Origin: Anthoceros angustus
Taxonomy: Eukaryota; Plantae; Anthocerotophyta
Length of the DNA stretch: 64,000 bases
Direction: 5' to 3'
NCBI GenBank assembly: GCA_010909165.1
Contig: MU008184.1
Span: forward strand, 682,001 to 746,000
Made by a program: the position numbers and the translations under genes. Of this stretch, positions 2,437 to 64,000 are shown in pieces; the first letter of the stretch is position 1; the number at the start of each line of letters is the position of its first letter. The notes beneath the pieces were generated by a model. It saw nothing but the letters and a program-made list of their open reading frames with translations. It made no database searches and was not told the DNA's origin.

Positions 2437-2962
2437 GGGGGTGTGACCCTGTACCTGTGTAATAAATGGCGGAGGGGTGCTCCACCTCCCGGCGCCACGC
2501 TTCCTGCTCAGTGCTCAGAGCTCACCGAGCAGCCGTGCCTTAGTATTAAATAGGTGCTCGTTTATGCCTCCCGTTTGTAGCGTTTGGATGGAACTTTCGA
2601 TCGTCGGGGCGCCGGGTTTGTTTCACTACCCGACACGCGGTGCACCCGAATCGCTGTGTCCCTGTCCCGGAGTCCCAACGGGAATGTGATTCATGACTGC
2701 TGCCGAGGACGGGAACGGAAACCGTTGTAATTGCTAATTACGCATTAAACTGGGCCTGACTGACTCGTCACATTCATGTGTTTGCACTTGTGTACCTAGT
2801 AGGAAACCTTTCCTGGGACGTGGAAGCTGCAACTGAGTTGCCTTGGGAGAAAGTGGAGCATGAATTTCACACATCAAAACTTTTAGTTGCGGCAAGCGTA
2901 AAATCTCGGACATCTATGTACATAGTTAGAAATACTGTATACTAGATTCAACACTCGTGGCT

Positions 2963-13777: not shown

Positions 13778-16162
<2,385 letters not shown>

Positions 16163-34692: not shown

Positions 34693-36794
34693 CACCTCAG
34701 GCCCGCAGCACACAGCAGGCACGCATCACTCATATCTCCCCTCGCATGCACCAGCCAATTCCGCGGCGCGGCCAGCACACATGCCGACTACCTCCCGGAA
34801 CTGTCGTGCTGCGCCTGCGCCTGGTGCATCCCGCTTCTGCCAAGCTGCGCCGGAATATGGAACGTAAGCATGCCTGCAGCCAGTGGCGGAAGCAGGCGCA
34901 CCAGAGCCTGCCAGGATGCGTCGCGTAAGGAACCACCAGTCCGGCTGCTGAATCGTGGAAGCAGCCAAAGACAAGCAAACACAAACGCAAACGCAAACGC
35001 GAGGAGCTCGCACTATGCTATGTTCCTTTCTATCCTGTTGCTATGCTACTTTACATAGCTGCACATATTTAGGGCAGCCATACCGACTACCCAACATACA
35101 CACTGGGTACCGAGGTAGCTACCATTATTTTTTATCATATGGCTTTCCCTTCTCGTCTCAATACATGTAAAGGTAGGGTAGATAGGCAGAAACGAAAATC
35201 TTCTTTTTCGTGCCAAACCAGCTCATTATTTACAAGAAATGGGCTCATCCAATCCAGCTCACCCAATATGTACATAGAGAGCCCTCCGGGAGTCGTACTA
35301 AAAAAGAGTAATTAAAGTTCATAAATAAAGTCATTTATATGCTCCAAAAATAGTAGTAAAAAATAATAATTAAATTTTATCTCTAAAATCACCAATGATA
35401 TCACAACCAGGGAAATTGAATGGCCTATATACTACCAAGATTAGCCAATGTTGACCTGCATCACCTGCTATGGTCGTTGTTCTAAGGATTGCCTTGCAAG
35501 TGCTCATTGCAGGGTAGTGGAGCCCAAAAGAATGCCGTGAAATAGGAGAAAAGACAAATTCTCATGAGCTATGTGCATAATTTCCTTCGGTCGATGGAGG
35601 GTATTCTCCAAGAAATTTAGGCATATTTCCCTACTAGAATTGTCTGCTTATGTTATACTTTATGTTAAGATTTGGACCCCTAGATGTAACACTCATGTTG
35701 CAATTTTGAGCTTATGTAACACTTTTTGGGCTCCTTGTTACACTTTGGCTTGGAAACCAGACCAGAGCTTTTGTTGCAATCATGTTGCAAGGGTGTTGCA
35801 ATTATGTTGCAAAGGTGTTGCAATTATGTTGAGATGAAGTGAGAGGTGCTTTTGTCCTCTCTCAAGATTGCAACAAGATTGCAACATATAAAGTGTTATA
35901 AGAAAAGTCTTATAACACTTTTCTAGGCTTCGTACCGAACCTCCTCCCCATCTGCCATTGCCCTTTTACTTTTGCCCTATGGAATACAACGTTTTACACA
36001 GTAGTTACCACTAATACGCTCATCAATACCACCACACATAAATGCCCGTATCAATACGTCCTTCGTACTATACGTGTATCATTTACGGTGATATATACGG
36101 TACTGTATTTTTAATGATATATATTCATATTATATTTTGTATATAATAAGTATGTATGTCATATGGATTACGTATATATGTTAGTCTATACATATTCATT
36201 ATACGGTACTTCGTATTTACCATTTGTGCAAATCTTGACGCATCTTTATACCCCAAATTTCTAGCACACCAGCCTATTTTTCTCTATCTGGTGCCTCCTA
36301 AAAAGGCACACCTTGAATTTCATCGACTGCCTCCTCTTCTGCCTCCATGTTCTCCTCTGCGTCACCGCTAGTACGTGTCCCCCCCTAGTCATGAACTGTC
36401 GACTACCCTTGGCTCTTTTTTAACACACCGGAATGTTCCCCCCCTAATCCTCCCTCCTTTTCTCTCCCCCCAGACAACTACTTCATATCCGTTATGCTCC
36501 TTTCTGCCCCTGCCCCGACCATGGCTGCTGTTGGCTGCTCCACTCCTGTCCTCCCTTTGCCACCCGTCTCTTCCGCTCCCCCTGCATTGTTTTCACTGTC
36601 CACATTCAACACATATCTGTTACTTGCTGGTGACGGTACACTTGCCCCTCTCTATGCTATAGCATTTGATTCTGGCCCTCTAGACACATCCCTTCTACCG
36701 TGCACAAGCCTCGTCACTCCCTATTCACCCAAGACCCCACCCTGCTAGCATCGCCTTCTCTAACGTATATCACAGTCTGGTTACGCATCAAATA

Positions 36795-37689: not shown

Positions 37690-40600
37690 CTAGTCGTCGG
37701 ACGCTGGTTGGGAGCTATCTTCAAACATGCCTTCAAAACCCCGTAGGTTAGGATCTCCAATACCTCGTCCGCGTGTCCGTCTAATTGGTCGAACTAATGC
37801 TTTGGCGGCATGGACTCGCGGATCATCCTCAACTCGAACATGGTCTTGGGTTTTAATATCATTGACCATGATTTGTGGTGGCGTTTCTCCTCGCCTCAAG
37901 GTGGTGGGTGAGCCCTTGTTATTCCGACTTCCGATTTGCATATGGTGGAGTTCAAATAGCTTGGTCTTTATGAGCTCTTGGGTTCTCACATAAAGCGTGC
38001 TCTCTCGCGTCGGGGCAAACCCATATGAAAGAATAAAGGTCTCCGCCACCACAAGGCAATCGAGATGCTTGGACGCTTTGGCCTTTGACGAGAGCATTCT
38101 TGTCCGCAGTTCGGTGGCAAAATCTCTTGGTATATAACGGCCTTCAAATGCATTCTTGTTCCGTAACCCACCATTGCACGACCAGTGCAGTTCGTCACGA
38201 AATCTAGGTTCTCCACCTCGCAACCCAAAAGGCTGTTTTGGTCATCCGCCTCACATGCAACGGCAATCATATGGCCCACCGGATCTCGATCACATCTCCG
38301 TCTAAGTGCACTTTCCCTTGCCCTTGCGCCTTGGGATATAATTACCAAGGTACATGCCTTGGCCCTCGTTCCTTGCTCTGGACCGAGAGAAGCGAACATC
38401 CGCACAAGGATGGTATCGCTATTCGCTCGCCTCTACCCGATTGTACCACCGCCATGGTATCTCTAGCTCATGGTCGGCGCCACGGAGATTTTTCGTGCAG
38501 ATCGGCTTGTGACTCCCAAAAGCCGTTCCACCATATCTTGTCGGCCTTTGGTAAGGTACTTGCATCGGCTCTTGAGTGCCTTCGATGCCATCCAATGATC
38601 TATGAGGGTTGGGATGCGGAGCTTTCCCATGTACTTGTAGTGCACAGGTGCCCACGGATGGGGTTTCGGGATGAGGCGAAGAAACTCAAGTCCCTCGTCG
38701 GGTTCCGTGAGGTGTGGTTGATAAATATTTGCCGCACTACAACCATTGCCCGCTGCGTTCTTCTCGTGATTTTAAATTGATGTTGATAACTATGGTTGTT
38801 CAAGCGTCCAAGCTGCAGCATCCGTGCCCCCTTTTACCCATCAAGGCCATACATACCTTGAAATCCGCAACAGGTAATCACTTTCACTTGGATTTGGGGT
38901 ATACGCTTGTTCAATAAGCGTCATCGAGAGTTAGTAGCGACATTGCCTTCTTATGTCTTAGACTTTTTGAAAAACAAGAGAACATTTGATCCACTAAATC
39001 ATGGGTGTGCCCGACAAGAAGGAATCCAACTTTAACCTTCTCGAATACCCGCTTCTTCACCAGCATACTCAGATATGCAAACAACAGCATATTCTTGTTC
39101 TCTCGCGCGGTGTTGTCCAATTGAAGGTAAAAGGTCTTTGGCAAGACACCGTCATAGTTGAGTATAATATCTTGAATAATATGTATCGTCAGGTTGGCAT
39201 CATTGCGGATGTTCGGATAGTTGACATACACCTTCGTCTTCATCACATTATTGTATACCAAACAACCAACAACATGAACACGAATTAACCCATCGGAAAT
39301 CTTTTGGAGGCCCCTGAAGTGCGGAGCTCGGTCTTGCTCTGGTCCATACCATCTATGGCAATTCAATATATCGGCTGGGTTGTCCGCACTTGCGATGCCC
39401 GCTAGCCCGATCGCTCTTGTTTTAAGCGAACTACGTCGACCGCGATTCGCTCTCAAAGCGTTACGCCAAAGGAACCATGAGATGTGAGATTATATTGCAT
39501 AGCGAGCATAAGTGCGCAGATTGGGGCTCCCACTTTCGCTGAGGCGCGCCTGGGCACTGCGCGCATGCGCCAGCGCATCGCAGCGCGCCTGCGCGCACTT
39601 CACGGCGCGCCGCTGGGCGCGCGCGCTGAGGCGCGCCTTGCGCGCCTCACTCGCACTCCCTGCATGCCGCAGCGCAAGTCGTGCACTCCCTTGCGCTCAA
39701 GTGCGCACTCCCTGCGCACACTTCAGCGAGTCCTTAAACTTGGACCTACCTTGATCTCGTCGATCTGTCGTAATCTGAATGGCCGTCTTGATAGTTTCAC
39801 ATTGTACACATTTGGAAAAGCGGCTGCACTTTGGGATCTTGACATTCGGGAAGTGCATCTTCCATAATGCGCAAAAATGAGAGTGAGATACGTTTGACAT
39901 CCCTGCCCGTGCCACCTCCCGTTTGTAGTCTTGGAAGATCTCCCTTCATTATAGAGTCGGTGAGGTTGAACACAGCGTTTGGCATGCGCTCTGCGGTTAT
40001 CTTAAAAATTGGTCCATCAAGCAATGCATTCTAGCACATGGTCTTGCTTTGGACGGGCTTGGACCTTCATTTCTGATGACCATGGTGTGTTCCGGAGAAC
40101 CCTGTTCGTCAGATTGTGATACCTTCTCCATCCAATGCAGAACACCTTGCGAAAACTTCGAACACAACATTGCATTCTGAGGTCTCCGGAGAGGTAGTTG
40201 ATCACCTTTGTTGTATCGGGATAGACTTGAACTACCTCAAGCAGACTTTCCAAATACAGTTCCTTTTGCTCTCGACCCATTCCCAAGAAGCGATACCTGA
40301 GGTTTTCTATATGTTTCCTTCCAACTTTCAGCAAACATCCTTTGCTACAACAATGCGACGACCATGCACTCGAACACCTCATAAAACTTCAACACAACAT
40401 TGCGTTCGAGGTCTCTCGGAGAGGTAGTTGATCACCTTTGTTGTATCCGGATAGACTTGAACTACCTCAAGCAGACTTTCCAAATACAGTTCCTTTTGCT
40501 CTCGACCCATTCCCAAGAAGCGATACCTGAGGTTTTCTATATGTTTCCTTCCAACTTTCAGCAAACATCCTTTGCTACAACAATGCGACGACCATGCACT

Positions 40601-44306: not shown

Positions 44307-47300
44307 TGTGGCGCGACTTTCTTGGCGGCGGCGGTAGCACAATCCGTGTCGTTGTAGGAAGGAGTTCGTTCCCAAGGAATAGCGGCTCCGTTTGCGGCGT
44401 TCGGTGATTTCGTCTTACTTCGTCACTCGGTCCCCTCGCACACCCCTTAGTTCACGTCTAACTACTCGCAACAACACCGCGGGCGGTATGGCCAAGCGTT
44501 TAAGGACCCGTTCGCGTCCGTTCGTTCGTTCGTCTCTCACCTCTCGTCCTCCTCTCTCACACTACACTTATCGGTCTTAAGGAAGGCCGGGTTACAGTCC
44601 GGACCTCCTCGTCGTTCCAGGGCCTCTCGTCCGGGCGCCACGCCCTCCGAGTCCCTCCGGCTCACACGTTCCGGTCCGTTCGGTGGGGCTCACGGGCGAC
44701 GGGTCCCGATCACCCTTCCTGCACACACCACAACACGTTAGGTCCGTCACGGGACCACGATCAATCCCTCCGGGCTCGTGCACCTTTCGGTGACTCGGGA
44801 CTCACGTTATGAAGACACACAAGGTGCAAGAGCGGCATCAACACCAAGAAAGATGATTTATTGGGCGGCCCGGCCCTCTTATACTACGCCTAGGTCGGCG
44901 TCTTTATTACACCCCTATTACGGTGGCGGCCATTTCGGTATGCCCTAATCGCCGCCTACCATCCTATTCCCTCCTCCTATCTCCTTCGCCTGGGTGGGAA
45001 GGTCCAGTTCCGCCTTGGGATTGGTGGTCCAATCTCCACGGCGATTGGCGCGCAATCGGATGATCCGCGGTAGACCCCTCCTTTCCCGGAATCACAGCCG
45101 GGTTGGGCTCACCGGTCGGCGACCGCCGTTACCTGTCATCCTCCCACAGCCTTCCGTGGGTCCCCTCGGTGGGGCCCTGATCCCTCCCCTAAGCGTAAGT
45201 CGAGGGCTCCTCCTTCTTGGTCGGGACCTCGGTCTCGACTCGGGAACTCCAAGGTCGGTTTATTTAGTCGGCCGGTGGTCGCCTCGTCTCGGGTTCGGAC
45301 CTCGGGGTCCGTACTTAGAGTCCGATCTCCAAACTCGGACCCCTTCACAGGACCTCGTCTTTAGGTCCTCCTCCTTACCCCGACCCTTGTCTTGGTCGGG
45401 TTGGCTCCCTTGCACCCCTGCAGGCCCTCACCCCCCCTCCGGATCGGGTGGTGGTGAACTTACCTTGGGGTCATGCGTCCCGCTCCTCACAGGGCTCCCT
45501 CCTTGCCGTCGTCTCCAAGCAGGGCCCCTAGGTCCTCTTTGTCTCGTGCCCTTCTTCCTCCGAGCCTTCCAGGGCCTCTCGTCCGGGCGCCGAGAGGCCT
45601 CCCGCCAGGAGCTCGGTGTGGTAATAGGCAAAGTCCGAATCCACTTGCTGGATTGCCTCTTCCACGTGTGCGGGCACCGATACTCCCTTCGCCATAGATG
45701 CTCGGGGCTCCCTCCTTGTTGCTCCACCTCCTGCTCCATCTTGAGGCTGGGCCTCTCATGGTGCCAGTGCCTCGGTCACCTCCATCGTGTTGTTGCTCCA
45801 CTTGCTCCAACTCCTCCGTTTAGTTCATGCTTGCACATAGCGTTCCCCTTCCTCAATTTGGACGGCTTCTTGCCTTCGGCGCCCTCGCCTCCTTGTCCGT
45901 GCTTAACTCCGCCATCTCCCGCTCGGGCGGTCGGGCAACACGGCGGGCTGCGGGCTTCACCAGGCCCTCCATCTCGGCGTCGCTCCTGTTCCGCCCTTCG
46001 ACTCCGTCCGCCAGAGCCGAGCCGCTCTATTTCGTCGCGTTCGCGACCATGTCCTGAACTACCATTCCTCTCAATGATAGTTTGGGCTGCGGCTCAAAGT
46101 CTCCTTCTTCCCCTCAGGGCCTTCCGGGGGGCCGTCTTGGCGGCGGGCGGGGCCTCTGCCGAGCTCGGTGTGGTAATAGGCAAAGTCCGAATCCACTTGG
46201 ATTGCCTCTTCCACGTGTGCGGAGCACCGATACTCCCTTCGCCATAGATGCTCGGGAGGCACATTGCCGTTGCTCCACCTCCCGCCGGGTTGGATAGGTG
46301 GGGCCTTCTCGGAGGCCAGCCTCGGTCACCTCCATGATCGTCATTGCTCCACTTGCTCCAACTCCTCCGTTTAGTTCTGCCGGCTTGCCGCCATAGCGTT
46401 CCCCTTGACTTCCTCAATTTGGACGGCTTCTTGCCTTCCGGCCCTCGCCTCCTTGTCCATTACCTCCGCCATCTCCCGCTCGACGGTGGGCAACGGCGGT
46501 GCGGGCTTCACCAGGCCCTTTTCCATCTCGGCGTCGCTCCTGTTCCATCGCCTTCTCGTCCGCAGGCGGGCGCTCTATTTCCCGTCGCGTTCGCGACCAT
46601 GTCCTGAACTACCATTCCTCTCAATGATAGTTTGGGCTGCTCAAAGTCTCCTTCGTCCTCCATCTCCTGCCTTCTTTGCTCCACCTCCGGGGAGTCGGAA
46701 TCCTCCATCTCCTTGTGGCGACTTCTTGGGCTGGTTGGTCGCGCTTGCTCCACCTCCTGCTCCATCTTGAGCGGTGGGCGCTCTATCTCACCTCGAAGTC
46801 TTGGATTCTCCCATTGAGAATTCCTTGCTTGCTCCGTCTTGGGTTGTAACTCCAAGGTGTCCTTCTTGTCCTCCAACTCCTGCGCCTCCCTTCTACCTCT
46901 GCAGTGCACAGGGTCCCGATTTCCGGGTCTTGGCCTCCGGTGTTTGCCCGGCTCGTCGTGCTTGCTCATGACCACACTCGGCCTTGATTGGCCGTGGCTC
47001 TCGGCCTCCCTCCACCGGTTCGATCACGCCGATAGTGATCGCGATCGGCCTCGCCGTGGCCTCCGCCTCCTTGGCCACCTTCACGAGCCTCTCGGCTTGG
47101 CTCTGGTCGGTCAGGCCTCCGCGGATCCGCGCCCGTTACGCTTGCGCCCGGGCGTCCTCGCTTCTCTGTTGCGCTCGCCCCTCACTGCGGAGGTCCTCCG
47201 CCCGCTTGGGCCTCCTTAGTGCACTTGTTCCTCCGGTGAAGGAATTTGTCCGGTCCTTGCGGATGGACGGACCTCCCTCTCGCCTCCGGCGTTTCCTTCC

Positions 47301-49917
47301 TCAATCGGCCGAGCTTGGCCTTCCTTCGCCTCCTGGGCTCCCTCCAAGCTGCTCCACGGAGGAGTACCATGCGCCTCGGGTGGCTTCTACCTCCACAGGT
47401 CTTCTCGGCCATCCCGAGACCCCAGGCATACCGTCCATGGCGGTGGCAGGACCCGTGTTTCTTCCACGGCCTGGTGAGGCTCCCACAAAGTCCGTGGCGG
47501 GGCCGGCATCTCACAGTCAGGACCTCCATACCGCTGTCAGAGTCGGGGGGTTCTCCGGACCTAATCGGGACCCTTAGGTCTGAGTCTTGGCTCGGGCTTC
47601 CCCTCCTTGGCCCTTTTGGCGCGAGCTCCTTCTCGCCCTTTTCCTCCAGGGCTCGGAGGAGGTGAGTCAGGAGCAAGCCTTTGCCCCTTCACGGTGGCAG
47701 GACCGGCTCGATGTGCTGCAGTGTCCTCCTCCTGGGCGTCCTCACTTCTGCTGCGCTCGCCCCTCTGCTGCGGAGGTCCTCCGCCCGCTTGGGCCTCCCT
47801 CCCGCCTCCTCCGGTGAAGGAATTTGTCGGTCCTTGCGGATGGACGGACCTCCCTCTCCGCCTCCGGCGTTTCCCTCCTCAATCGGCCGAGCTTGGCCTT
47901 CCTTCTCGCCTCTGGGCTCCCTCCAGCTGCTCACGGAGGTACCATGCGCCTCGGGTGGCTTCTACCTCCACAGGTCTTCTCGGCCATCCCGAGACCCCAG
48001 GCATACCGTCCATGGCGGTGGCAGGACCCGTGTTTCTTCCACGGCCGGCTGTGAGGCTCCCACAAAGTCCGTGGCGGGGCCGGCATCTCACAGTCCGAGG
48101 ACCTCCCGTTGTCGGAGTCGGTGGGTTCTCGGACCTAATCGGGACCCTTAGGTCACGAGTCTTTGGCTCAGCTTCCCCTCCTTGGCCCTTTTGGCGAGCT
48201 CCTTCTCGCCCTTTTCCTCCACGGGGCTCGGAGGAGGTGAGTCAGGAGCAAGCCTTTGCCCCTTCACATCGGCAGGACCGGCTCGGGTGGTGCTGTGTCC
48301 TCCGCTCCACAGGCGCGTCCTTTGCCCTCCTTCCTTCCTCGCTTCTTGCCACTCAGGTGGCGGGGAAGAATCTTGGCACCGGCCCGGGGTGCAGCGTTGG
48401 TAAGTGGTCTTGCGTCTCTTGGCTCCCTCACAGTCGGGCTCCTCGGTAGGAGTGATGGCCGTGGCGGGGCCTCGGTCCTTTCGGGCGCTTCTTGGGTGGT
48501 ACGGTTGGGGCACGGAAGGAGGCGGGGAATTTCTTCCCATACTTCCACAGGTGGTGAGGGGTCCGTTCAGCGTATGGAGTCGGAATCCTCGATCGTCCTC
48601 CTCCGTCCGTTTGGCTTTCGACGGCCTCCTCCCTCGGCCCTTGCGCTCCACTTGGCGGGGCCTCAGGTCCTTTCCGGGCGCTCGCTCAAGCTCTCCTTCC
48701 TTGAGGAGCTCGAAATGCCCCATACATGGATCGGTATGGGGCGGCCCAGATGGCGAGGCTTCTCGGTCTGAGCTTGCGAGCCTCTGGCTAAGCGGCGAAA
48801 TCCTTCCCAGTCCGCCCTCTTCCCCGTAGCGCGGGAACATTATCACCAAGGTGATCCACCTTGGTGAGTAGGTTCGATGGACAATGATCCGGGCCACCGC
48901 CCTTACTCATTGTCCAGGTCGGATATCGATACCGTTGGTGGTCGTTGCGTCGAGCCTTAGCGCGCTGGCGCGGCCTATCTTCCCTTCGCCTTGAGGGGCT
49001 CGGCACCACTCCCCTCTTCCTCCTTTGGGCGGTTGTAGGCGCCTCGGGACCTCAAGGTCCATCGCCTTGGGTCCTCCGGAGGTTCTTGGACCGCACCTCC
49101 TTGTTGACCGCCCGGCATCTTCGGGCGAACTCCGGACGGTGACCTTGTCAAATGTCGGACCATGGAACACATCCAAATGCCACTCCTGCACCAATTCCTT
49201 CCGGGCCGGGGCCCAAAGTCCGGATAGCGGGTCACAATGTTGCGCTCCACAAGGTTCCATGGCTCCCAAACTTCCAGGCTTTTGGGTGCCATCGCCTTCT
49301 CCTCCTTGGTTCTTGGCCGGCCCAAAGTCCGGATAGCGCGGGTCACAATGTTGCGCCTTCTTCGCGTTGTTGCTCAACCTCAGCGGTGAGCGCGCGCGGG
49401 CGAGTGTCACGAGATACGCGAGCGGTGCGGGCGCGAGATCGCGAGGTCTCGGCTGCGGTGATGACCTTCCCTTCTTCGCCGCCGGGAATAACGGCGGGCG
49501 CCTCTTCCTCCGTGGCGCGTGCACGCGCTGCACGCCGCCTCCGCTTACTGCGGCCTTACGCCGCGCGTACTCGGCCTTCGCCGCCCGGTCCGCGGCGTGA
49601 ATACTGCTATGACCTCACAGCAGTCTGACAGCGGCATGCCGTCCTCCACTCGAGTTGCCCGTGGCGTCGCCTGGTCATCCGGCTCAACTTCTAAGTTACT
49701 TTCCTGGCGTACTTATCACGGTCACAGGTGGGTCCGGACTTATCCGTTACCGTGGCACCTACCATAGTAGGTCTGATGCGTTCCTCACTCGGTCGGAGTA
49801 TACTCCAGTGCCGTCCGAGTGCTACCCATGCTTCCCCTTTTTCGCCTCATTTTATCCTTTACTCCTACAAAAAACAAAACCCTACCTAATTTCTAACCCC
49901 GAAGTCCGTAGTCCACA
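44307..49917 (-). repeat. 3' LTR (5.6 kb, including two internal ~0.5-kb tandem duplications)
   Basis: Begins TGTGGCGCGACTTT, ends GTAGTCCACA; colinear with 58897-63371; minus-strand TATAAGAG at 44876-44883 and AATAAA at 44857-44862. Confidence 0.92.
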
Positions 49918-49930
49918 TACTCCCCTTCTC
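49918..49930 (-). promoter_or_regulatory. Polypurine tract
   Basis: Minus strand GAGAAGGGGAG-TA immediately precedes the LTR start TGTGGAC. Confidence 0.9.
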
Positions 49931-52900
49931 ACTGTTGGCGTCTCCAACACTAAGCGTGTACTTTTCACCGCCATCCGTTCACCAGTGGGCGGCTTCACCA
50001 TCCAAGCGCGGTGAGCGGACCCATTGGGTATACCCGTCGACTTGGTAGGTCCCATCCATCGTAGGTGGAGTTTACAGGAAGTGCATATGTCGGTATCGTA
50101 AGGAGGCGGATCTCCCTCCTTCACATACTCACGATTCTAAGGCGCTATCATGCCACGGCTTGCGTTGATTACATGCATTGCATTATTGTTGCGCCTCTTC
50201 CGGTCCTCCGTATCTTTGCACAAACCCTAGCAACGCTCCGGTTGGCTCTCTTCATCCGTTAAGCGCCTTTCCATCATGACCGGTGTTGGCACCTCAAACT
50301 CGGCCGGCATAACGGGTGAGTGCCCATAGGTCGAATGTCTGAGTTCGTTGCGTGGTTACCTTCTCTGCCGTTACGAGCGCCCATAGCGCGATGGCGCTTT
50401 TGTATCGATCGTGCGCATAGTTAGTCGACAGAGGATGCGGCGAGATAAGTCCATTGGTCTTCTCCGTCGATCCGTTGGCCTTGGATTGTAGGGGCGTTTC
50501 GATGTGTGATGCGAAATAGTCCGTCATTGCGGTTATCACATCATTGAGGAAATGGGTTCCCGATCGCTTACTACAGCGGACACCCGTACCTTGTGATGAT
50601 GTTTCGTGAGGAATTTGGCCACCGTGCTCGCGAGTCCGTTCTAGTAGCGCTTCACCCACAGTGCGATGGTCGTTGCCACCAAGATGTACCGCTTTTGTGT
50701 GCCTCGTCGTTGGTATGGGTCCAGCGAAGTCGATGCCCCTTCTCAAAAGGCGCTAGTGCTAGTATGGGCACTAACGGCCATTGAGTTGTGGCGTCGGCTT
50801 CCGATCCGACAAGCATCACACTTCTTCACGAATTGGTGTGTTTCCCCATACATGGTGGGCCACCAGTACCCAGCCTCCAAGATTTTCTTGGTGGTGACCT
50901 GCGCTGCATAATGTCCACCACCTAGTCCTTCGTGCATCCCCTTTATTACCACCTCCGTCTCCGCCTGTTGGAGGTACCTTCGTTCCACGCCGTCCGGCCC
51001 CACCTTAAAGATGCAACGTTATACTGGAAAGGCGGCGTAGTGCACAAAGGCACTGGACCGGTTCGATTCGTTGGTAGCTCCATCTCCCATAGGTACCGTT
51101 CCAACTCCGCGTAAGAGGCGCCGCGTCGCTCCCTTCTCCGCTTCTGGGTCCATGTCCCCGACTTAGGGTTTGTCCGGCTGTGCTCTTCTGATTCCTCCAC
51201 TATCGCTGCCACCAATTCCTCATCCGGAAAGGCGTCCTCCTGATCCTGTAGGACAGGCTCCGTCTTTAACCTGGACAAGAAGTCAGCGTTTTGGTGTTGC
51301 TTCCCTTGCCTAGTCTCCACCTCAAATGTGAACTCCTGTAGCAACAGAATCCACCTCGCAATCCGTCCAGACAGGTCGGCCTTGTTTACCAAGTGCTTGA
51401 GCGCGAAGTGATCAACATAGAACACAAACTCATTGGGCGGGAAGGTAATGCAGATTTTCTTAACGGCGTATACCATTCCCAATGCCTCTCGCTCCGTAGT
51501 AGTGTACCTCCGTTCCGCGTGCGTGAGCTGTCTTCCAGCGTAGTAGATTGGGTGATCCCTCCGTTTATCATCTTTTTGACTGAGCACTACCCCGATGGCG
51601 AAGGCTGACACATCCACGTACACATGGAATCGCTTCCCGGTCCGGTCCTTTGAGTCTTTGGGGCCGACCAGTGGTGCGGAGGTCTCTGAATCGCCTCCTC
51701 TACCTCCTCCTCTATCGCGCCACCAATTCCTCATCAGGAAGGCGTCCTCTTGATCCTGCGGGGCGGGCTCTTCTGGACAAGAAGTCGCGTTTTGGTGTTG
51801 CTTCCTTGCCTAGTCTCCACCTCAAATGTGAACTCCTGTAGCAGAATCCACCTCGCAATCCGTCCGGACAATGCCTTGTTCACCAAGTGCTTGGCCAGTG
51901 ATCAACATAGAACACAAACTCATTGAAGGTAGTGCTGAATTTCTTAAGCGTATACCATTCCCAATGCCTCTCGCTCCGTAGTAGTGTACCTCGTTCGCGT
52001 CGTGGCTGTCTTCCAGTAGATTGGGTGATCCCTCCGTTTATCATCTTTTGGTGAGCACTACCCGATGGCGGTGACACATCCACGTACACATGGAATCGCT
52101 TCCCCGGTCCGGTCCTTTGAGTCTTTGGGGCCGACCAGTGGTGCGGAGGTCTCTGAATCGCCTCCTCTACCTCCTCCTCTATCGCGCCACCAATTCCTCA
52201 TCAGGAAGGCGTCCTCTTGATCCTGCGGGGCGGGCTCTTCTGGACAAGAAGTCGCGTTTGGTGTTGCTTCCTTGCCTAGTCTCCACCTCAAATGTGAACT
52301 CCTGTAGCAGAATCCACCTCGCAATCCGTCCGGACAATGCCTTGTTCACCAAGTGCTTGGCCAGTGATCAACATAGAACACAAACTCATTGAAGGTAGTG
52401 CTGAATTTCTTAAGCGTATACCATTCCCAATGCCTCTCGCTCCGTAGTAGTGTACCTCGTTCGCGTCGTGGCTGTCTTCCAGTAGATTGGGTGATCCCTC
52501 CGTTTATCATCTTTTGGTGAGCACTACCCGATGGCGGTGACACATCCACGTACACATGGAATCGCTTCCCCGGTCCGGTCCTTTGAGTCGGGGCGACAGT
52601 GGTGCAGGTCTCTGAATCGCCTCCTCTCGGCGTCGGGTCCATTCCTCCTCCTTCTGAGTAGCTCTGTTAGCACAGGCCGCTTTGCAAAATCTTGTATGAA
52701 GCGCCTATAGTAACCACCATGCCGAATCCCGTAACTCCTTCAAGTTCGTTGGTGGGCTGCGGGGGGATGACTTTCACCTTGTCTTGGTCCACCTCTATCC
52801 CTCTTACACACTCGGTGCCCCAACAAGATTCCCTCTGTCATGCAGTAGCATTTCTCGGGATGCGAGCCTGTTGAGTCTCCTACATCGTTCCAAACACTTC

Positions 52901-55900
52901 AAATGTCCACGTGTTTGTCCTCCTCTCGTGCACAGTCGTCCAAGAACACCTCCATGAAGTCCCTCGGAATTCCGGAAGACATTGGTCACCATCCGCATAA
53001 ATGATCCGGGTGCTCTGTCATCCGAAGGCACTCCGTTTGTAGGCAAGCGTCCCCACTCCGTGGTGAATGTTGTCTTATCGGTCAGGCTCCCTTAGGTGTA
53101 GCGGTTGTGGCCAGATGGCCGTCAAGAAGGAGTAGGTACTCGCTGCCACCTTGTCCGATATCGTCCACAAAGGGCATGGGAAATGGTCCTTTTCGTGGCG
53201 GCGTTAAGCTTTCTCCGATCTGTGGACCGAATGCCCTGCTTCTTGACGACCACAATGGGCGCCACCCACTCCTTTATTCACGATTGGGAAGATGATGTCG
53301 CTTCCGGATACTTATCCGGGACTTCCTTGACCTTGGCGAGTGCTTGGGATTGATTTATCTTGCCTAATCCGAGCAGGCACGCTCACGGCTTCAGATCTAT
53401 CCGGTGTTATTTGTTTGAATGCCTTCATGTGACCTTGAAAGCGAACACCTGTTGAATTCAAGTGAGGTCTTGTTTAACTCGATGGCATACCCTTGCGAAT
53501 TTGAATTTGGCCACCGTGCTCGCGATCCGTTCTAGTAGCGCTTCCACCCACAGTGCGATGATTTGCCACCAAGATGTACCGCTTTTGTGTGTGCCTGGTC
53601 GTTGGTACAAGTCGATGCCCACTTCTCAAAAGGCGCTAGTGCTAGTATGGGCACTAACGGCCATTGAGTTGTGGCGTCGGCTTCCGATCGACAAGCATCA
53701 CACTTCACAATTGGTGTGTTTCCCCATACATGGTGGGCCACGGTACCCGACCTCAAGATTTTCTTGGTGGTGACTGCGCATAATGTCCACCACCTAGTCC
53801 TTCGTGCATCCCCTTTATTACCACCTCTCACTCCGCTTGTTGGAGGTACCTTCGTTCCACGCCATCCGGCCCCACCTTAAAGATGCAACCGTTATACAAC
53901 CGAAAAGGCGAGCGTAGTGCACAAAGGCACCTGGACCGGTTCGATTCGTTGGTAGCTCCATCTCCCATAGGTACCGTTCCAACTCCGCATAAGAGGCCGC
54001 CCCGTCGCTCCCTTCTCCGCTTGGTGGGTCCGCTGTCCCCGGCTTAGGGTTTGTCGGTGTGCTCCTCTACCTCCTCCTCTATCGCCAATTCCTCATCCAG
54101 GCGTCCTCTTGATCCTGCGGGGCTCGTCTTTAACTGGACAAGAAGTCGGCGTTTGGTGTTGCTTCCTTGCCTAGTCTCCACCTCAAATGTGAACTCCTGT
54201 AGCAGAATCCACCTCGCAATTCCACAAGTGCCTTGTTCACCAAAGTGCTTGGCCAGTGATCAACATAGAACACAAACTCATTGGGCGGGAAGGTAGTCGA
54301 ATTTTTCTTAGCGTATACCATTCCAATGCCTCTCGCTCCGTAGTAGTGTACCTCCGTTCGCGTCGTGAGCTGTCTTCCAGCGTAGTAGATTGGGTGATCC
54401 CTCGTTTATCATCTTTTGGTGAGCACTCGATGGCGGTGACACATCCATACACATGGAATCGCTTCCCCGGTCCGGTCCTTTGAGTCTTTGGGGGCGGAGT
54501 GGTGCAGGTCTCTGAATGCCGCCTCCCTCTGGCGTCGGTCCATTCCTCCTCCTTCTGAGTAGCTCTGTTAGCACAGAGGCCCGCTTTGCAAAATCTTGTG
54601 AAAGCCTATAGTAACCCACCATGCCCGGGAATCCCGTAACTCCTTCAAGTTCGTTGGTGGGCTGCGAGGGGGGATGACTTTCACCTTGTCTTGGTCCACC
54701 TCTATCCCTCTTCGACACTCGGTGCCCCAACAAGATTCCCTCTGTCATGCAGTAGCATTTCTCGGGATGCGAGCGCAGTTGAGTCTCCTACATCGTTCCA
54801 AACACTTCCAAATGTCCCCGTGTTTGTCCTCCTCTCGTGCACAGTCGTCCAAGAACACCTCCATGAAGTCCCTCGGAATTCCGGAAGACATTGGTCACCA
54901 TCCGCATAAATGATCCGGGTGCTCTGTCATCCGAAGGCACTCCGTTTGTAGGCAAGCGTCCCCACTCCGTGGTGAATGTTGTCTTATCGGTCAGGCTCCC
55001 TTAGGTGTAGCGGTTGTGGCCGAGTAGTATCAAGAAGGAGTAGGTACTCGTCAGCCACCTTGTCGATATGTCGTCCACAAAGGGCATGGGAAATGGTCCT
55101 TTTTGTGGCGGCGTTAAGCTTTCTCCGATCTGTGGACCGAATCTGCCCTGCTTCTTGGCACGACCACAATGGGCGCCACCCACTCCTTTGTTCGATTGGG
55201 AAGATGATGTCGCTTCCGGATACTTATCCGGGACTTCCTTGACCTTGGCGAGTGCTTGGGATTGATTTATCTTGCCTAATCCGAGCAGGCACGCTCACGG
55301 CTTCAGATCTATCCGTTATTCGCCTTTGTTTGAATGCCTTCATGTCCCTTGAAAGCGAACACCTCGTGAATTCTGTGAGGTCTTGTTTAACTCGATGGCA
55401 TACCCTTGAATTTTAGGAATTTCCACAGGCGAACCTCCACGTCTTCCACATCGTCGGGTTGTCTCTCTTTCCCTCGCCGCTTCACTCGTCAAGCCATCAT
55501 CCTCTACCGCGGTTCATCTTCACGCATTCCCCACTCGGAAGAGTTCGTCAGTGAACAGGTTACTTCTTGAGTCCTCCTCATCGGAGGGTTCCCCTTTTGT
55601 TGTCCTCCGACTTCCACTTGGCGGTGATCACCTCGCTCCAAAGGTGTCCCTTGATAGTCCATTTTCTTCTTCGACCACGTGATTTTGGGAAAGGGTAGTC
55701 CTCATTCGTATCCTCGCTCATCGTCCCCTTGTCTTGACGGAGGTGTACCCTACTGTGGTCTTGTGGTTTCACCAGATGTGTCCTTACTCAGTGTCGCTAC
55801 CGTCCTTCCCTCACCTTGGATCCCAGTCCACGGCTTGAAGTGTATTTCCTTCCGTCCAAGTGTAGTTTTGTCGCGAGGCCAAGGCCGCTAGCAGGACCTC

Positions 55901-56300
55901 ATGCAGTCGGCGGGTCGATGACGAAATCTAATGTATAGGGGCTCCGCTATGGTGGCTTGGACTCGGGACAACTCCCCTGCTGGCTCGCCGCGACATGTCC
56001 GCCATCCACGAGGGTTTTGGTGGATGGCTCGAAGGTGGTGAACCCGGCCGTCTTGCGGTGGCCTCGGTGATGAGGTTCACTCGACCCGTGTCTAGAGGCA
56101 CGTTTTAATTACACACCCGCAATTTCCACACACTGCTGGCGCCCGAGTCCGTATGAGATCGACCCTTACCTCACGTTCTTGCCCTTAGGACCAAGGAGTT
56201 CCGGCGTGGTTGCGTTTCACGATGGCCTTAGGACTTCACAGCCGATGCCGGGTTGTCTTTTAACAAGCGCCTAAGGGACACCAAGTGTTGTTGGTCCATC
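49931..56300 (-). pseudogene. pol: pol (protease, RT, RNase H, integrase), frameshifted and partly duplicated
   Basis: RT: DRRKLNAAT..PFPMPFVDDI, TTFTTEWG, MPFG, FMEVFL; RH: FHVYVDVSAFAIGVVLSQ..PIYYAGRQLTHAERRYTTTEREALGMVYAVKK..SGRIARWILLLQEFTFEV; INT: MHEGLGGGHYA..GYWWPTMY..VKKCDAC, GIDFAGP, GTHFLN, LRWMGP; no chromodomain seen. Confidence 0.92.
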
Positions 56301-58850
56301 ATCAAGTCGGCCACCTTGAAAGGGCGGGTGGTTCTCTGCGTCACGCGTCGCCTTGTCTCCTCCGGTTTGGCTCGTTGTGGTGGTCGGACCACTACAGGTC
56401 TGTCGGAGTTCTTCTTGAAGCATCTCGGTCACTTCTCGGACCACATCCGGTGGAAACTGCGGCGTTGCCGTAGGTGAGTCCGCTTCTCCGGAGACTCCCG
56501 GTGGCTTTTGGGAGTTCTTCTCTGGCGGGGCTGCCGGTTAACTTCGTCCTCTTTGGCGGGTTCGGCTTCCTTCAGCGGGTGTTCCGTCCTCCGTATCCGT
56601 GGGACTATCCCCATTTTCTTCCTCTTGCTCTCCGTTCCTTCGCTCCTTGGCGACTCGGGTTGACACTTCCGGTACCTCGGTCCGCCTTCTTCTCCTTGGC
56701 GAACTTGCCCGTACCACCTCGTTCGAGCTCCTCGGTGCCTCCTCCCCTCCTTGGTTGTCGTCTTCAATTTGTACAGGCGCCGCCTTAGGGAGGGCGTGGC
56801 GGTCGGCTCCCGGGGTGGCGTGGCGCACCGTCCTCGGCGAGGTTCGGACACAGTCTTGCACCATGTGCCCGCACCTTCAATCTCCACAGGCGTTCAAAGT
56901 CCCGTTACCTTGCGGTGGGGTATGGGCACGCGTTGGAGTAGTGCGGGGTTCCACAGTTCCAGAGACCACCGCCACGAGAATTCTGGAGGGCTCCCATGCG
57001 GTCTTGCATCGGAGGTCGATGCAGACGGACCAGCTGTGTACATCGTCACAGGATCTGGTCCGGTTGCTTCTTGCACTTGGTATGCATCCTCCCATGTTCC
57101 TCGGACTCTTCCCGTAGTCGCCTCCACAGTTCACGGGCGGAGGGGCGATTGGCCTTGAATGCCCATGTTGGTGACACACACCACAAATGAGTCGGACCGT
57201 GGTGGCCACCGCCCGCGTTCTTTATCCTTCACGGTTGATCGTCAACTCCTCCACCCTCTTCATTACCGTTCTAGATCTTCCCTCGGCCGCTACTTCCTTC
57301 AAAGGAGTGGGTCGGTGGACCTCTCGTCTCGGGGGCATGACCTCCTTCTTTTCCACCTCCATTCGGCTTCTTCTTCTTTATTTTTTGTGAGTTCTTCTTC
57401 TTCCATGACCTCCTCCTCTTCCTCCGCCTTGTCGTCTTCAATTTATAGCGCCGCCTTAGGGAGGGCGTGGCGGTCGGCTCCCGGAGGGGTGGCGTGCGCA
57501 CCGTCCTCGGCGAGGGTTCGGACACAGTCTTGCACGCCATGTGCCCTGCTTGATCTCCAGGCGTTCAAAGTCCCGTTACCTTGCGGTGGGGTATGGGCGC
57601 ATTGGAGTAGTGCGGGGTTCCCAGTTCCAGACCACGCCACGAGAATTCACGGAGGCTCCCATGCGGTCTTGCGAGTCGATGCAGACGGACCAGCTGTGGG
57701 TACATCGTCACAGGATCGTGGTCCCGGTTGTGCTTCTTGCACTTGGTCATCCTCCCATTCCTCGGACTCTTCCCGTAGTCATACTCCACGGTTCCACGGG
57801 CGGAGGCGGTTGGCCTTGAATGCCCATGTTGGTGACACACACCACAAATGAGTCGGACCGTGGTGGCCACCTTACGCCGTTCTTTATCCTTCACGGTTGA
57901 TCGTCAACTCCTCCACCTCTTCATTACCGTTCTAGATCTTCCCTCGGCTACTTCCTTCAAAGGAGTGGGTCGGTGGACCTCTTGCATGCGGGCATCATGA
58001 CCTCCTTCTTTTCCACCCTCCGCGACTACGGGCTTCTTCTTCTTTGTTTTGGGGTTCTTCTTCTTGACCTCCTCGGATTCTTCTTGAGTCCTCTTCCTCT
58101 TCCTCCGAAGTGCCTCGGTCTCATCATCCTCCTCTTTCAGGGTTCTTCATCTTGGTCCGACCCCGTTTCTTCTTTTTCTTCTTTCCTCCTGGAGGAGTCC
58201 TCGGCCGTCGTTGGTGCATCGATTCTTCATAGTTCTCCGCCGGACCGCCTTGCTCACATCTTTCTGCCAGCGGCGTGCAGCCGGCTTGGATAAGCCAGCT
58301 GCGAACCAACGTACCGCCTGCATGGTAGTGTGAGTGGGGTGCCGGTCCCGCAGCGCGTAGAACCGTTCGATGTACGATCCCAACTTCTCCGTCTTTCCTC
58401 GCTTCAGGTTCTCGAGTTTGGACAAGACGTAGCCTTCTTGATCGATTCCGCGGAATCTTTCTAAGAAGGCATCCTTCAATCTTGAAGGTTGCGGTGCGTT
58501 ACGGTGTGGTATTTCCTCCGATACCAGCAGCGGCTACCGTGGACCCTTGGAGCAGTGAAATGCGTCCAGACCTTCTCCGTTGAAGTTTGCCGGACACAAT
58601 CCTCCACGAAGGTTTCGCGTCTCTCCTTCTTACCTCCAAAGAGAATCGCTTGCTTGGTCGGCGTTGTTGCCATCGCGATCGGTAAGGTGAGGAACCGCCA
58701 CGACTTGGTCTCGTCCTCCTCTCGATCCGACAACTCCACCACCTTACTGTTGGTGTCCTCGCCTCGAGCTCGTCGTCTCACGTGCGCTGCTCGGGCGCTC
58801 GGCGATCTGGCGTCCGACTCTCTCGATTCTTCCTTAACTACCTCCGTCCT
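56300..58850 (-). pseudogene. gag: gag with several Cys/His knuckles, frameshifted; 56760-57330 duplicated at ~57425-58010
   Basis: LKDAFLERFRGIDQEGYVLSKLENLKRGKTEKLGSYIERF (capsid MHR-like); LICGVCHQHGH and further CxxC..H motifs. Confidence 0.8.
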
Positions 58851-58880
58851 CCACGCATCCACGCTTGCTGAGCGATTTCA

Positions 58881-58893
58881 TTCCCGGGCGCCA
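58881..58893 (-). promoter_or_regulatory. Primer-binding site
   Basis: Minus strand ..CCACA-TTT-TGGCGCCCGGGAA; TGG is complementary to the tRNA 3' CCA, and TGGCGCC is typical of Athila/Tat-group PBSs. Confidence 0.85.
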
Positions 58894-58896
58894 AAA

Positions 58897-61800
58897 TGTG
58901 GCGCGACTTTTCGCGGACGGTAGCGCACAATCCGTGTCGTTGTAGGAAGAGTCCGTTCCCAAAGGAATGAAGGCTCCGTTTGCGGCGTTTGATTCTTCTT
59001 ACTTCGTCACTCGGTCCTCGCGCACACATTCACGTCTACTACTTACCACGGGCCGGTATGGCCAAGCGTTTGAGACCCGTTCGCGTCCGTATCGTTCACG
59101 TTCGTCTCTCACACCTCTCTCCTCCTCTCTCACACTACACTTATCGGTCTTAGGAAAACGCGGGTTACGTCGGACCTCCTCTCGTTCCAAGGCCTCCGTC
59201 CGGGCTGCCGCCCTCCGAGTCCCTCCGGCTCACACGTTCGGTCCGTTCGGTCGGGCTCGGGCGAGCACGGGTCCCGATCACCCTTCCACTGCACACACCA
59301 CAACACGTTAGGTCGTCACGGGACCACGATCAATCCCTCCGGGTCGCCGTGCACCTTTCGGTGACTCGGGACTCACGTTAGCAGAAGACACAAGGTGCAA
59401 GCAGCATCAACACCAAGAAAGATGATTTATTGAGCGGCCCTCTTATACTACGCCGGTCGGCGTCTTTATTACACCTCTATTACGGGCGGCCCGGCTCGGT
59501 GTACTGTCGGCCGCCTACCATCCTATTTCCCTCCTCCTATCTCCTTCGCCGGTGGGTGGGAAGGTCCAGTTCCGCCTTGGGATTGGTGGTCCAATCTCCG
59601 CCACGACAATCGGCGCAATCGGATGATCGCGGGGCCCCTCCTTTCCCGGAATCACAGCCGGGTTGGGCTCGTGGCGGCACCGCCGTTACCTCGTCATCCT
59701 CCCCTCCCGTGGGTCCCCTCGGTGGGGCCCCATTGTCGCTCCTAGCGTAAGTCGAGGGCTCCTCCTTGGGGTCGGACCTCGAGGTCGGTCTCGACTCCGA
59801 ACTGAACTCCAAGGTCGGTTTATTTCCGAGTCCCAGGTGGGGTCGGCCTCGTCTCGGGGTTCGGACCTCGGGGTCCGTGCCTTAAGTCCGATCTCCAAAC
59901 TCGGACCCCTTCACCTGTGGACCTCGTCTTGCTAGGTCCTCCTCCTTACCCCCGACCCTTGTCTTGGTCGGTTGGCTCCCCGGTTGCACCCTTGCCCCTC
60001 ACCCCCCTCTCCGGATCGGGTGGTGGTGAACTTACCTTGGGGTCAGCTGCGTCCGCTCCTCCGGGGCTCCTCCTTGTGCCGTCGTCTCCAAGCAGGGCCC
60101 CTAGGGTCCTGTCTTTGTCCGTGCCCTTCTTCCCCTCAGGGCCTTCCGGGGCCGTCTATTGCGTGGAGGCCTCTGCCAGCTCGGTGTGGTAATAGGCAAA
60201 GTCCGAATCCACTTCTGGATTGCCTCTTCCACGGAGCCGATACTCCTTCGCCATTGATGCTCGGGAGTGAGCACTTGCCCGCTTGTTGCTCCACCTCCCA
60301 CTTGAGTTGGATAGGCAGGCTGCTTCTGTGGTGCAGGCTGCCTCGGTCACCTCCGCATCGTCGGCTGTTGCTCCTCCAACTCTCCGTTTCCGTTCATGCC
60401 CGACTTACGCCCGTGGCGTTCCCTTCCGACTTCCTCTGGACGGCGGCTTCTTATGCCTTCCGGCGCCCTCCTTGTCCATTACGGCGTTAACTCCGCCATC
60501 TCCGCTCCAGGCGGTCGGGCAACACGGCGGCTGCGGGCTTCACCAGCCCTTTTCCATCTCGGCGGCGTCACGCTCCTGTTCCATCGCCCTCCGTCCAGCG
60601 GGCGGGCCGCTCTATTCGGTCGCGTTCGCGACCATGTCCTCTGACTACCATTCCTCTCAATGATAGTTTGGGCTGCGGCTCAAAGTCTCCTTGCGGTCCT
60701 CCATCTCCCGCCTGCTCCACCTCCGGGTGAGTCGGAGATCCTCCACCTCCTTGTGGCGACTTCTTGGGCTGGTTGGTCGCGCTTGCTCGCCACCTCCTGC
60801 TCCATCTTGAGGCGGTGGGCGCTCTATCTCGCTCGAAGTCTTGGATTCTCCATTGAGAATTCCTTGCTTTCCGTGCATCTTAGTTGTAACTCCAAGGTGT
60901 CCTTCTTGTCCTCCAACTCCTGCGCCTCCTTCTACCTCTGCTGCGCCACAGGGTCCCCGATTTCCGGGTCTTGGCCTCAGTGTTTACCTGCTCGTGCTTG
61001 CTCCTGACCACTTGCTCGGCCTTGATTGGCGTGGCTCTCGGCCTCCCTCCACCGGTTCGATCACGCGATAGTGATCGCGATCGGCCTCGTGGCCTCCGCC
61101 TCCTTGGCCACCTTCACGAGCCTCTCGAGCTCTGGTCGTCCGGTGCCTCGCGGATCCGCGCCCGTTACGCTTGCGCCGGGCGTCCTCGCTTCTGCTGCGC
61201 TCGCCTCTGCTGCGGAGGTCCCGCCAGCTTGGGCCTCCTTGGCACCTTGGTGTTCCTCCGGTGAAGGAATTTGGTCCGGTCCTTGCGGATGGACGGACCT
61301 CCCTCTCGCCTCCGGCGTTTCCCTTCCTCAATCCGGAGCTTGGCCTTCCTTCTCGCCTCTGGGCTCCCTCCAAGCTGCTGGAGGAGTACCATGCGCCTCG
61401 GGTGGCTTCTACCTCACAGGTCTTCTCGGCCATCCCGAGACCCCAGGCATTGATCCATGGCAGTAGCAGGACCGCCGTGTTTCTTCCACGGCGGCAGTGA
61501 GGCTCCCACAAAGTCCGTGGCGGGGCCGGCATCTCCGATCCGAGGACCTCCCTGTGTCCGGAGTAAGTCCGGTGGGTTCTCGGACCTAATCGGGACCCTT
61601 AGGTCACGAGTCTTGCTCGGGCTTCCCCTCCTTGGCCCTTTTGGCGCGAGCTCCTTCTCGCCCTTTTCCTCACAGGGCTCGGAGGAGGTGAGAGTCGGGA
61701 GCAAGCCTTTTGCCCCTTCGGCAGCGGACCCGGCTCGGTGCTGCAGTGTCCTCCGCTCACAGGCGTCCCTTTACGCCCTCCTTCTTGCTTCCTCCGCTTC

Positions 61801-63371
61801 TTGCCACTCAGGTGGCGGGGAAGAATCTTGCGGGTGAGCGTTGGTAGCCGTGGTCTTGCGTCTCTTGGCTCCCTCACAGTCGGGGCTCCTCGGTAGGAGT
61901 GATGGCCGGTGGCGGGGCTGGGGTCGGGCGCTTCTGTGGGCTGCTCTGGTTGGGGCACGGAAGGAGGAGGCGAATTTCTTCCATACTTCCACAGGTGGTG
62001 AGGGGTCCGTTCAGACGTATGGAGTCAGGAATCCTCGATCGTCCTCCTCCGAGTCCGTTTGGCTTTTGCCTCCTCCCCTCGGCGCCCTTGCCGCTCCACT
62101 TCGGCGGGGCCTCCGGTCCTTTCGGGCGCTCGCTCAAGCTCTCCTTCCTTGAGGAGCTCGAAATGCCCCATACATGGATCGGTATGGGGCGGCCCAGATG
62201 GCGAGGCTTCTCGGTCACAGCTTGCGAGCCTCTGGCTAAGCAGGCGAAATAATCCTTCCCAGTCCGCCCTCTTTCCGGCGCTGCGGGAATACCAGTGATT
62301 ATCACCAAGGTGATCCACCTTGGTGAGTAGGTTCGATGGACAATGATCGGGCCACCGCCTCGGTATCAGCAGTCGGATATCGACCAACCGTTGGTGGTCG
62401 TTGCGTCGAGCCTTAGCATGCTGTGGGGCCCTATCTTCCCGCCTTGAGGGCTCGGCACCCTCCCCTCTTCCTCCTTTGGGCGGTTGTAGGCCGCCTCGGA
62501 CCTCAAGGTCCATCGCCTTGGGTCCTCCGGAGGTTCTTGGACCGCACCTCCTTATTGACCGCCCGCATCTTGGCGAACTCCGGACAGTGAGTGTCAAATG
62601 TCGGACCATGGAACACATCCAAATGCCACTCCTGCACCAATTCTCCACTTCCTGGGCAGGCCCAAAGTCCGGATAGCGCGGGTCACAATGTTGCGCTCCA
62701 CAAGGTTCCATGGCTCCCAAACTTCCTTGGCTTTTGGGTGCCATCGCCTTCTCCTCCTTGGTTCTTGTAGCGCTTGAGAGGCTGGCAGCACGTTGCGCCT
62801 TCTTCGCCGTTCGGCTCCGACCTCAGCGGTGAGCGCAGCGGCGTCTGAGTGTCCACGAGATACCGCCAGGCCGGTTGCGGGCGCAAGAGATCGCGAGTGT
62901 CTCGGTGCCGTGACCTTCCTTCCGCTCCTTGGGAGTAACCGGGCGGGGCGCCTCTTCCACATCCGTGGCGAGTGCATGGCACTTACGCCTCCGCTTACTC
63001 ACGCCTTGGCGTACCTACGGCCTTCGCCGCGCGCGATCCAGCGTGAATACTGCTATAACTCTGGCAGGTCACGGTCTGGCGGTGCATGCCGTTCTCACTC
63101 GAGTTGCCCACGTGGCGTCGCTGGTCCGCTCCACGGCTCAACTCTGAGTTACTTTCAGGCGTGCCACCACAGGTCTTGGAGTGGGTCCGGACTTATCACA
63201 TTCGTGGCACCTACCATAGTAGGTCTGATGCGTTCCTCACTCGGTCCGGAGTATACTCAGTGTCTTGTCAGTGCTACCCATGCTTATTTCCCCTTTTCGC
63301 CTCATTTTATCCTTTACTCCTACAAAAAACAAACCCTACCTAATTTCTAACCCCGGGGAAGTCCGTAGACA
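58897..63371 (-). repeat. 5' LTR (~4.5 kb)
   Basis: Starts TGTGGCGCGACTTT at 58897; colinear with the 3' LTR; right end degenerate (GTCCGTAGACA). Confidence 0.9.
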
Positions 63372-64000
63372 GTCACAGTGAAGATGTCTGGTTGGTAGAC
63401 TGAAACCGTTGTGCATTGCGAGTGTCGGCGCATATGCGGGATAGGGTGGATGAAGTATTCGACCTTTGGGAGAAAGGTGAGCTACTAGGGCGGGGAAACA
63501 AAAAGGCGGCAAAGAGGAAAATCAAGCGTGGCGGCCTGAACTGAACCGGTGATGCGAGATCCGAATCTTATTATAAAGCCAATGCATGATGGCGGGTGTT
63601 CGAGGAATGCCTCGGGAGGCGGTGAGCGTATTATGCTATACGGAAAGTAATTCGAGGAGAGTTAAGCGTGAGCGGCATGAAGACATGGATCATAAAGGCA
63701 AAAAAGTTAAATGTGATACAAGCGACTTTACATTCGGGTTTTACGGTGTACGTCATTTGCAGAGGTTGAGAGAGAGTACCCACGGCACTCGACGACGGAT
63801 GATATCGCAAAGTTTCAACCGGTCTTCGACCACATCGTAAGTTATTCTCGTTGCTATCGGGTACTGTGGATTAGGGTGCGCGCACTTGTTTGCGCATCCC
63901 CATCAGTCAAATTTCACAATGCTTTTTGGTACTCGCGCTTTGCGGCGAAGAGTACAAAGAAAAGTCATTCGAGATAGCTTCAAAGAGCATATCAGCGCGG

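Follow-up and report, generated by a model that had tools for sequence, protein, structure and literature searches.

Can the long terminal repeats (LTRs) of a plant retrotransposon hold a protein-coding gene, and what would such a gene do? The question is raised by an element on the (-) strand of a 64,000-nt stretch of the Anthoceros angustus genome (Anthocerotophyta; contig MU008184.1, positions 682,001 to 746,000), hereafter the window, whose coordinates are used throughout. A preliminary description had proposed that the unique 3' region (U3) of both LTRs carries a coding region of ~4 kb behind a splice acceptor. With modest confidence, we favour the reading that this is a high-copy non-chromovirus Ty3/gypsy element with 4.5-kb LTRs, each carrying a sense accessory gene in U3 that starts at the peptide MAPK, is expressed from its own promoter, and encodes a domain of predicted VANC21/plant mobile domain (PMD) fold, likely binding the element's own DNA against silencing.

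The LTRs and the domain in U3

In a self-comparison of the window, 44307-49911 and 58897-63368 form a long direct repeat, around which the following features were placed.

58897..63377 (63377-58897), (-) strand: 5' LTR, 4481 bp, TG...CA, from the self-comparison and the termini
44307..49917 (49917-44307), (-) strand: 3' LTR, 5611 bp including two ~570-nt tandem duplications
49920..49930 (49930-49920), (-) strand: polypurine tract (PPT), directly behind the integrase end
58876..58893, (-) strand: primer-binding site (PBS), starting at 58893, an error-bearing form of the TGGCGCCGCTGCCGGGGA site found in three relatives (L003, L004, L005) and which we take to be of tRNA-Asp type
44857..44883, also 59426-59447, (-) strand: TATA box and AATAAA at the border of U3 and the repeat region (R), from motif positions
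49950..58870, (-) strand: gag (CCHC-like knuckle), protease (PR), reverse transcriptase (RT), RNase H (RH) and integrase (IN), broken by indels and tandem duplications

In line with the preliminary description, the entire ~4.5-kb repeat is an LTR, bounded by the PPT and the PBS and by TGTGG...CCACA termini that form a 5-bp inverted repeat (TG starting at 49917 and 63377, CCACA ending at 44307 and 58897). Since TATAAGAG (TATA) lies at 44883 and 59447 and AATAAA at 44862 and 59431, U3 is ~3.95 kb long, as against the ~4 kb first estimated. The duplications of the 3' LTR (47147-48303 and 45550-46658, ~570 nt each) are absent from the 5' LTR and are likely assembly artefacts; with duplications left out, the element measures ~15 kb. 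The TATA-region stretch (59437-59481) and the LTR start with its T-rich tract (49869-49904) are the only LTR parts matched by diverged-family contigs of run X2, so that these two motifs are conserved.

The order gag-PR-RT-RH-IN between LTRs with a PBS and a PPT is that of Ty3/gypsy elements. No chromodomain was seen and, because integrase homology reaches 49972 and runs straight into the PPT, the element falls outside the chromoviruses. No additional archaeal RNase H (aRH) was seen either, RH being followed directly by IN, collinear with aRH-less relatives, which sets the element apart from Tat/Ogre/Retand. The closest named matches of its RNase H were liverwort proteins (Riccia, Marchantia, Calypogeia), then Adiantum; in a quick tree with no starred branch it grouped with the liverwort proteins, and one angiosperm row (P0081) was distant from it. 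Judged by these affinities, the host would probably be a non-seed plant. RT-RH, RH and gag segments are tandemly duplicated in units of ~500-1400 nt at 51193-55422 and 56738-58074, probably also through misassembly.

The peptides quoted in the preliminary description were all recovered from the translations. They had been divided into a globular and a charged block, of which only the first held: it is coding above chance and matches a family profile.

62139..62614, (-) strand: globular domain, 5' LTR copy, profile positions 38-200
48691..49244, (-) strand: globular domain, 3' LTR copy, profile positions 7-200

The profile was built from 150 relatives among the matches listed and run with a frameshift-tolerant aligner over both strands in 126 scanning windows, the best three of which were the U3 regions of the two LTRs. 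The 5' copy scored 64.6 bits (null maximum 37.4) and the 3' copy 46.4 bits (null maximum 34.5), with 0/300 nulls in each case; under a stricter frameshift cost, the scores were 47.6 bits (0/300) and 26.4 bits (3/300), respectively. Antisense and reversed-profile controls gave 15-21 bits overall (17.5 and 21.4 for the 5' copy), the best single relative (P0108) gave 61.5 bits against at most 22 for nulls, and an earlier, shallow profile had given 21-22 bits (2/150 nulls each). The globular block is therefore, by sequence comparison, a genuine member of the accessory-domain family. An antisense frame of 432 codons at 44949-46247 was discarded, as it had no Pfam match and the antisense strand of the domain regions reached only 15-18 bits with the domain profile.

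The coding region of ~4 kb was not borne out: homology spans ~0.55 kb, the first ~620 nt of U3 look non-coding, and the open reading frame (ORF) is probably ~2.7 kb long.

60000..62744, (-) strand: U3 ORF of the 5' LTR, probable extent, MAPK ATG at 62744, end approximate; ~900 codons, with the domain, a low-complexity linker and a charged tail
45430..49292, (-) strand: U3 ORF of the 3' LTR, probable extent, ATG at 49292, stretched by duplications

The start was set by the offset comparison given below and the end (about 60000) by the translations, beyond the reach of homology. For the charged C-terminal tail no relative could be detected: among 39 tails, 6 outscored the highest of 6 nulls, where 5.6 would be expected.

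Relatives were examined in 79 metagenome loci, fetched by pol alignment as the best 80 of 157 confirmed stretches, and several of them have a long sense ORF just behind pol. A single N-terminal domain links L002-L009, L046 and two gene models of Riccia in an iterated profile, and the accessory-domain profile matches 1051 representatives among 1.84 billion. L006 and L008 are intact natural members, and synonymous differences outnumber replacements in all six in-family pairs (6/6). Pfam recognizes 1 of 77 members at E 0.005, so that the family is nearly unannotated; the curated cut-off for Transposase_32 (PF20167), PMD or ATHILA was not reached (best 21.4 bits vs 45), and the window frames had no match to these. 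In L004 and L005, what follows the post-pol PPT matches, as an inverted complement, what precedes the PBS (9/9 and 12/13), and the ORF, which starts 500-650 nt later and within which both contigs end, therefore lies in the LTR. In L003 and L007, a second PPT-like tract and TG behind the ORF suggest that it is internal, L003 being ambiguous, and L030 has an apparent LTR of ~400 bp. The LTR boundaries, the domain homology in both copies, intact ORFs in relatives and the LTR position in two of these are shown. The earlier claim that a plant Ty3/gypsy element carries a large accessory gene in sense orientation within U3 is supported; judged from the sequence, the gene is real, lies in the LTR and belongs to a large family that is almost without annotation.

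The Riccia gene models (P0034, P0067) fuse pol to the accessory domain, which conceals the family within annotated "hypothetical" proteins, and in L046 (1-4710) the domain is in frame with integrase in a single 1570-codon frame. Post-pol ORFs of ~900-1080 codons with long coiled-coil-like tails and no Pfam match were found in L022 (4694-7933), L023 (6247-8997), L030 (3319-6327) and L031 (6033-7136); this second group resembles the main family by eye but is not linked to it by the profile, and its ratios of replacement to synonymous change (dN/dS, 0.06-0.15) were therefore excluded from the family evidence. L052, L053, L055 and L059 belong to another clade and were set aside; the third ORF of L053 (6863-8956; also in L052 and L059), a viral fusion ORF, matches a Monjiviricetes fusion glycoprotein (E 4e-185 for L053). 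The pol frames of L016-L018 (2450-2580 codons) reach far beyond integrase.

Predicted fold and possible role

The comparison with Transposase, PMD and VANC-type proteins put forward in the preliminary description gave the best leads. The domain predicted for two relatives best matched VANC21 (PDB 9LNK/9LNJ) over nearly its whole length, with a middling Z and 10-14% identity, and the N-terminal ~200 residues are predicted to have the VANC21/plant-mobile-domain fold. In the model that we favour, this domain would bind the element's own DNA and counter host silencing, anti-silencing appearing the most likely role. A shift of plus-strand priming to a purine tract upstream of the gene probably brought it into the LTR, since a switch of the priming PPT would move it into U3; it would then be copied to both ends at every replication and persist in a solo LTR. 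AGCGCTA was enriched only in the non-coding DNA of L003 (z 8.7 vs a shuffle maximum of 5.1), and CCGGA was strongly enriched across L004-L006, L008, L009 and L030, pol included (z up to 22), also filling pol in L004-L009. These could be target motifs or the result of a methylation-related mutational bias.

The strongest alternative to this model, which we consider rather unlikely, is that the U3 gene is real and its VANC-like domain acts otherwise in the nucleus, in integration targeting, chromatin tethering or self-limiting silencing like MAIN/MAIL1. It agrees with the occurrence of the same fold in MAIN, a silencing factor (PMC13547354 and PMC5418596, in the portions available), with the middling Z, and with the absence of target-motif enrichment or a motif array in the error-rich window. 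The anti-silencing model gains, in turn, from the fact that a sequence-specific anti-silencer encoded by a transposon, in complex with DNA, is the sole solved structural match, from the restriction of AGCGCTA enrichment in L003 to non-coding DNA, and from the arrangement of domain and coiled coil, which resembles that of VANC (PMC13547354, same portion).

Expression of the gene and state of the sequence

The acceptor-like tract described earlier is present in both LTRs (AG at 49866-65 and 63321-20), followed by an ATG at 49850 and 63305.

49865..49880, also 63320-63334, (-) strand: T-rich tract and AG, a candidate acceptor, overlapping the TAGGGTTT motif, which is presumably telo-box-like
44719..44805, also 59289-59376, (-) strand: predicted leader intron, 87 nt, in R and the unique 5' region (U5); GTGAGT...CTAAC...CAG, a pattern match

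Translation from this ATG, which opens MRRKRG, had been proposed and now appears improbable: its distance from the domain, 196 codons, exceeds that in each of the 74 comparable relatives (those of the 150 with a Met start and an N-terminal domain; offsets -10 to 188 codons, median about 10), and the codon is ATA in a diverged family member (one contig) that retains the T-tract and AG. The MAPK ATG (62744 and 49292) lies 10 codons before the domain, the median offset of the relatives, and MAPR opens two close relatives. This codon is the likely start of the ORF, ~625 nt inside the LTR, and we favour over splicing an internal promoter, which would lie within the initial 600 nt of U3; in L006 a TATA-like box precedes the ATG by ~300 nt, and no clear one was seen ahead of MAPK in the U3 of the window.

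A message for the same gene could instead arise at the 5' LTR promoter and be spliced from the leader donor at 59376 to the acceptor at 49865, a model that is unsupported and that we regard as unlikely. The T-tract with AG is strong in both copies and kept in the diverged contig, the GTGAGT donor, ~50 nt downstream of the predicted start site, is the sole donor seen in both copies able to reach the U3 acceptor, and spliced sense additional ORFs (aORFs) are known for barley Bagy2 (PMC7264820, in part). The offset and the ATA just mentioned speak against it, however, as do 5-7 other ATGs between the acceptor and MAPK, the leader donor's own acceptor 87 nt downstream, and the occurrence of similar T-rich AG sites near LTR starts generally, including relatives with an apparently internal ORF.

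Per column, the LTR copies agree at ~85%; gap events outnumber substitutions (146 vs 84), with no transition bias in the first 2.3 kb, and the internal duplications show the same gap-rich pattern. Short-read contigs of run X1 covered 29 of 30 bins per stretch compared and differed from the window by many single-base indels; host exons in the window are open for >1000 codons. We read these discrepancies as long-read error left unpolished in repeats, going by what we take to be its signature. Such error would account both for the failure of composition tests, gag-pol included, and for the empty results of direct searches, in which neither Pfam on the U3 frames nor word-index protein searches with frameshifted window frames returned a match. 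Plain (non-frameshift) profile searches of the window were not significant, no match came from viral-contig scans, an exact DNA pattern in metagenomes or BFVD, and the best E from tblastx between the LTRs and the 79 loci was 0.14. Period-3 and host-trained codon tests of U3 were negative and uninformative, the gag-pol controls reaching only z<=1.9.

That U3 holds only a decayed relic, as the lack of an open frame in either copy and the negative periodicity and codon-model tests might suggest, is in our view quite improbable: gag-pol is equally broken and mostly failed the same tests, which were thus without power, the difference spectrum resembles read error, and copy-to-copy identity climbs from 0.71-0.77 to 0.80-0.96 at the domain start. 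Summed contig depth in run X1, which by the tool's own warning is no copy number, rises from ~20 in the flank to 335-1,518 across most of integrase and 2,500-6,300 across the U3 domain, and it drops from hundreds-thousands to ~20 past 63468; a high-copy LTR is no more than hinted at by these figures. Seven contigs depart from the window at 62659, inside the domain, as a diverged variant, which suggests subfamilies of the U3 gene within one run. Least probable of all is that misassembly or a tandem array has given a long LTR to what is truly a short-LTR element with an internal 3' ORF, as in Athila and seemingly L007 and L030, which would suit the several artefact-like duplications, the lack of a visible target-site duplication (the 5' flank ends TCAC and the 3' flank begins ACGG, in error-rich sequence) and the arrangement of L003, L007 and L030, and which is countered by the shared start of the two copies, the TG behind the PPT of the 3' copy being where the 5' copy also begins, the inverted-repeat termini, the layout shared with L004 and L005, and the higher depth over the domain than over integrase (depth not being copy number).

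Host genes occupy 9248-34725 of the window, with tandem RNase III domains (11201-12400) in a gene that is presumably Dicer-like, CoaE (13778-14317), and long exons that end in a weak zf-CW match (25240-34725), possibly of an ASHH2-like gene. A DUF7869 match lies at 38911-39489.

Significance and comparison with known elements

The function of plant gypsy extra ORFs is described as an open question in the parts of PMC7264820 and PMC11963269 that were available, and the structural link to VANC21 makes it directly testable. Whether plant mobile domains originated in transposons or host genes, left open in the corresponding part of PMC5418596, is a further question on which the family bears. The LTR position is a new feature of such an accessory gene: a literature search, which did not reach Steinbauerova 2011 or Tanaka 2026 (VANC21 structure), either possibly bearing on novelty, found no report of an extra ORF inside a plant LTR. 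At that position a gene is doubled whenever the element is copied, and it would outlast recombination to solo LTRs, by which hosts usually remove such elements. More tentatively, non-seed-plant gypsy elements may encode a large family of VANC-like, sequence-specific anti-silencing proteins, whose gene some lineages moved into the LTR by a PPT switch, each solo LTR then being a self-contained cassette for anti-silencing in trans; if so, the VANC/MAIN fold would be an old retrotransposon counter-defence domain.

Retroviruses have genes encoded in U3, namely sag of mouse mammary tumour virus and the 3' part of nef. There too the gene is copied into both LTRs, but the protein is unrelated, and the ORF is much longer here and the host a plant. 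VANC21 of VANDAL21 (PMC5735166, in part) is likewise a transposon accessory protein and is matched structurally across nearly the entire domain; VANC, however, is encoded by Mutator-like VANDAL DNA transposons and called dicot-specific in the available part of PMC13547354, whereas the present element is an LTR retrotransposon of a non-seed plant and lies outside that group.

With the non-chromovirus clades Phygy and Selgy (REXdb), the element shares the lack of aRH and chromodomain, pol running up to the PPT, and nearest relatives in non-seed plants. It differs from both in its ~15 kb, its presumed Asp-type PBS and its U3 gene. The relevant portion of PMC6317226 gives for these clades no extra ORFs (eORFs), lengths of 4.4-10 kb, and tRNA-Trp or tRNA-Ala primers.

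The extra ORFs of Athila/Tat/Ogre/Retand (Athila ORF-1, PMD, Transposase_28) also lie 3' of pol and combine a globular domain with a coiled coil, and the U3 gene gave weak Transposase_32/PMD/ATHILA leads. Athila, we assume, has an Asp-type PBS, the type presumed here; the extra ORF of this element is sense but within the LTR. Theirs are internal, outside the LTR and often antisense (PMC6317226, PMC7264820 and PMC11963269, as far as available), whereas the U3 gene, nearly invisible to Pfam (1/77), is in sense orientation, downstream of the PPT and present in both LTRs.
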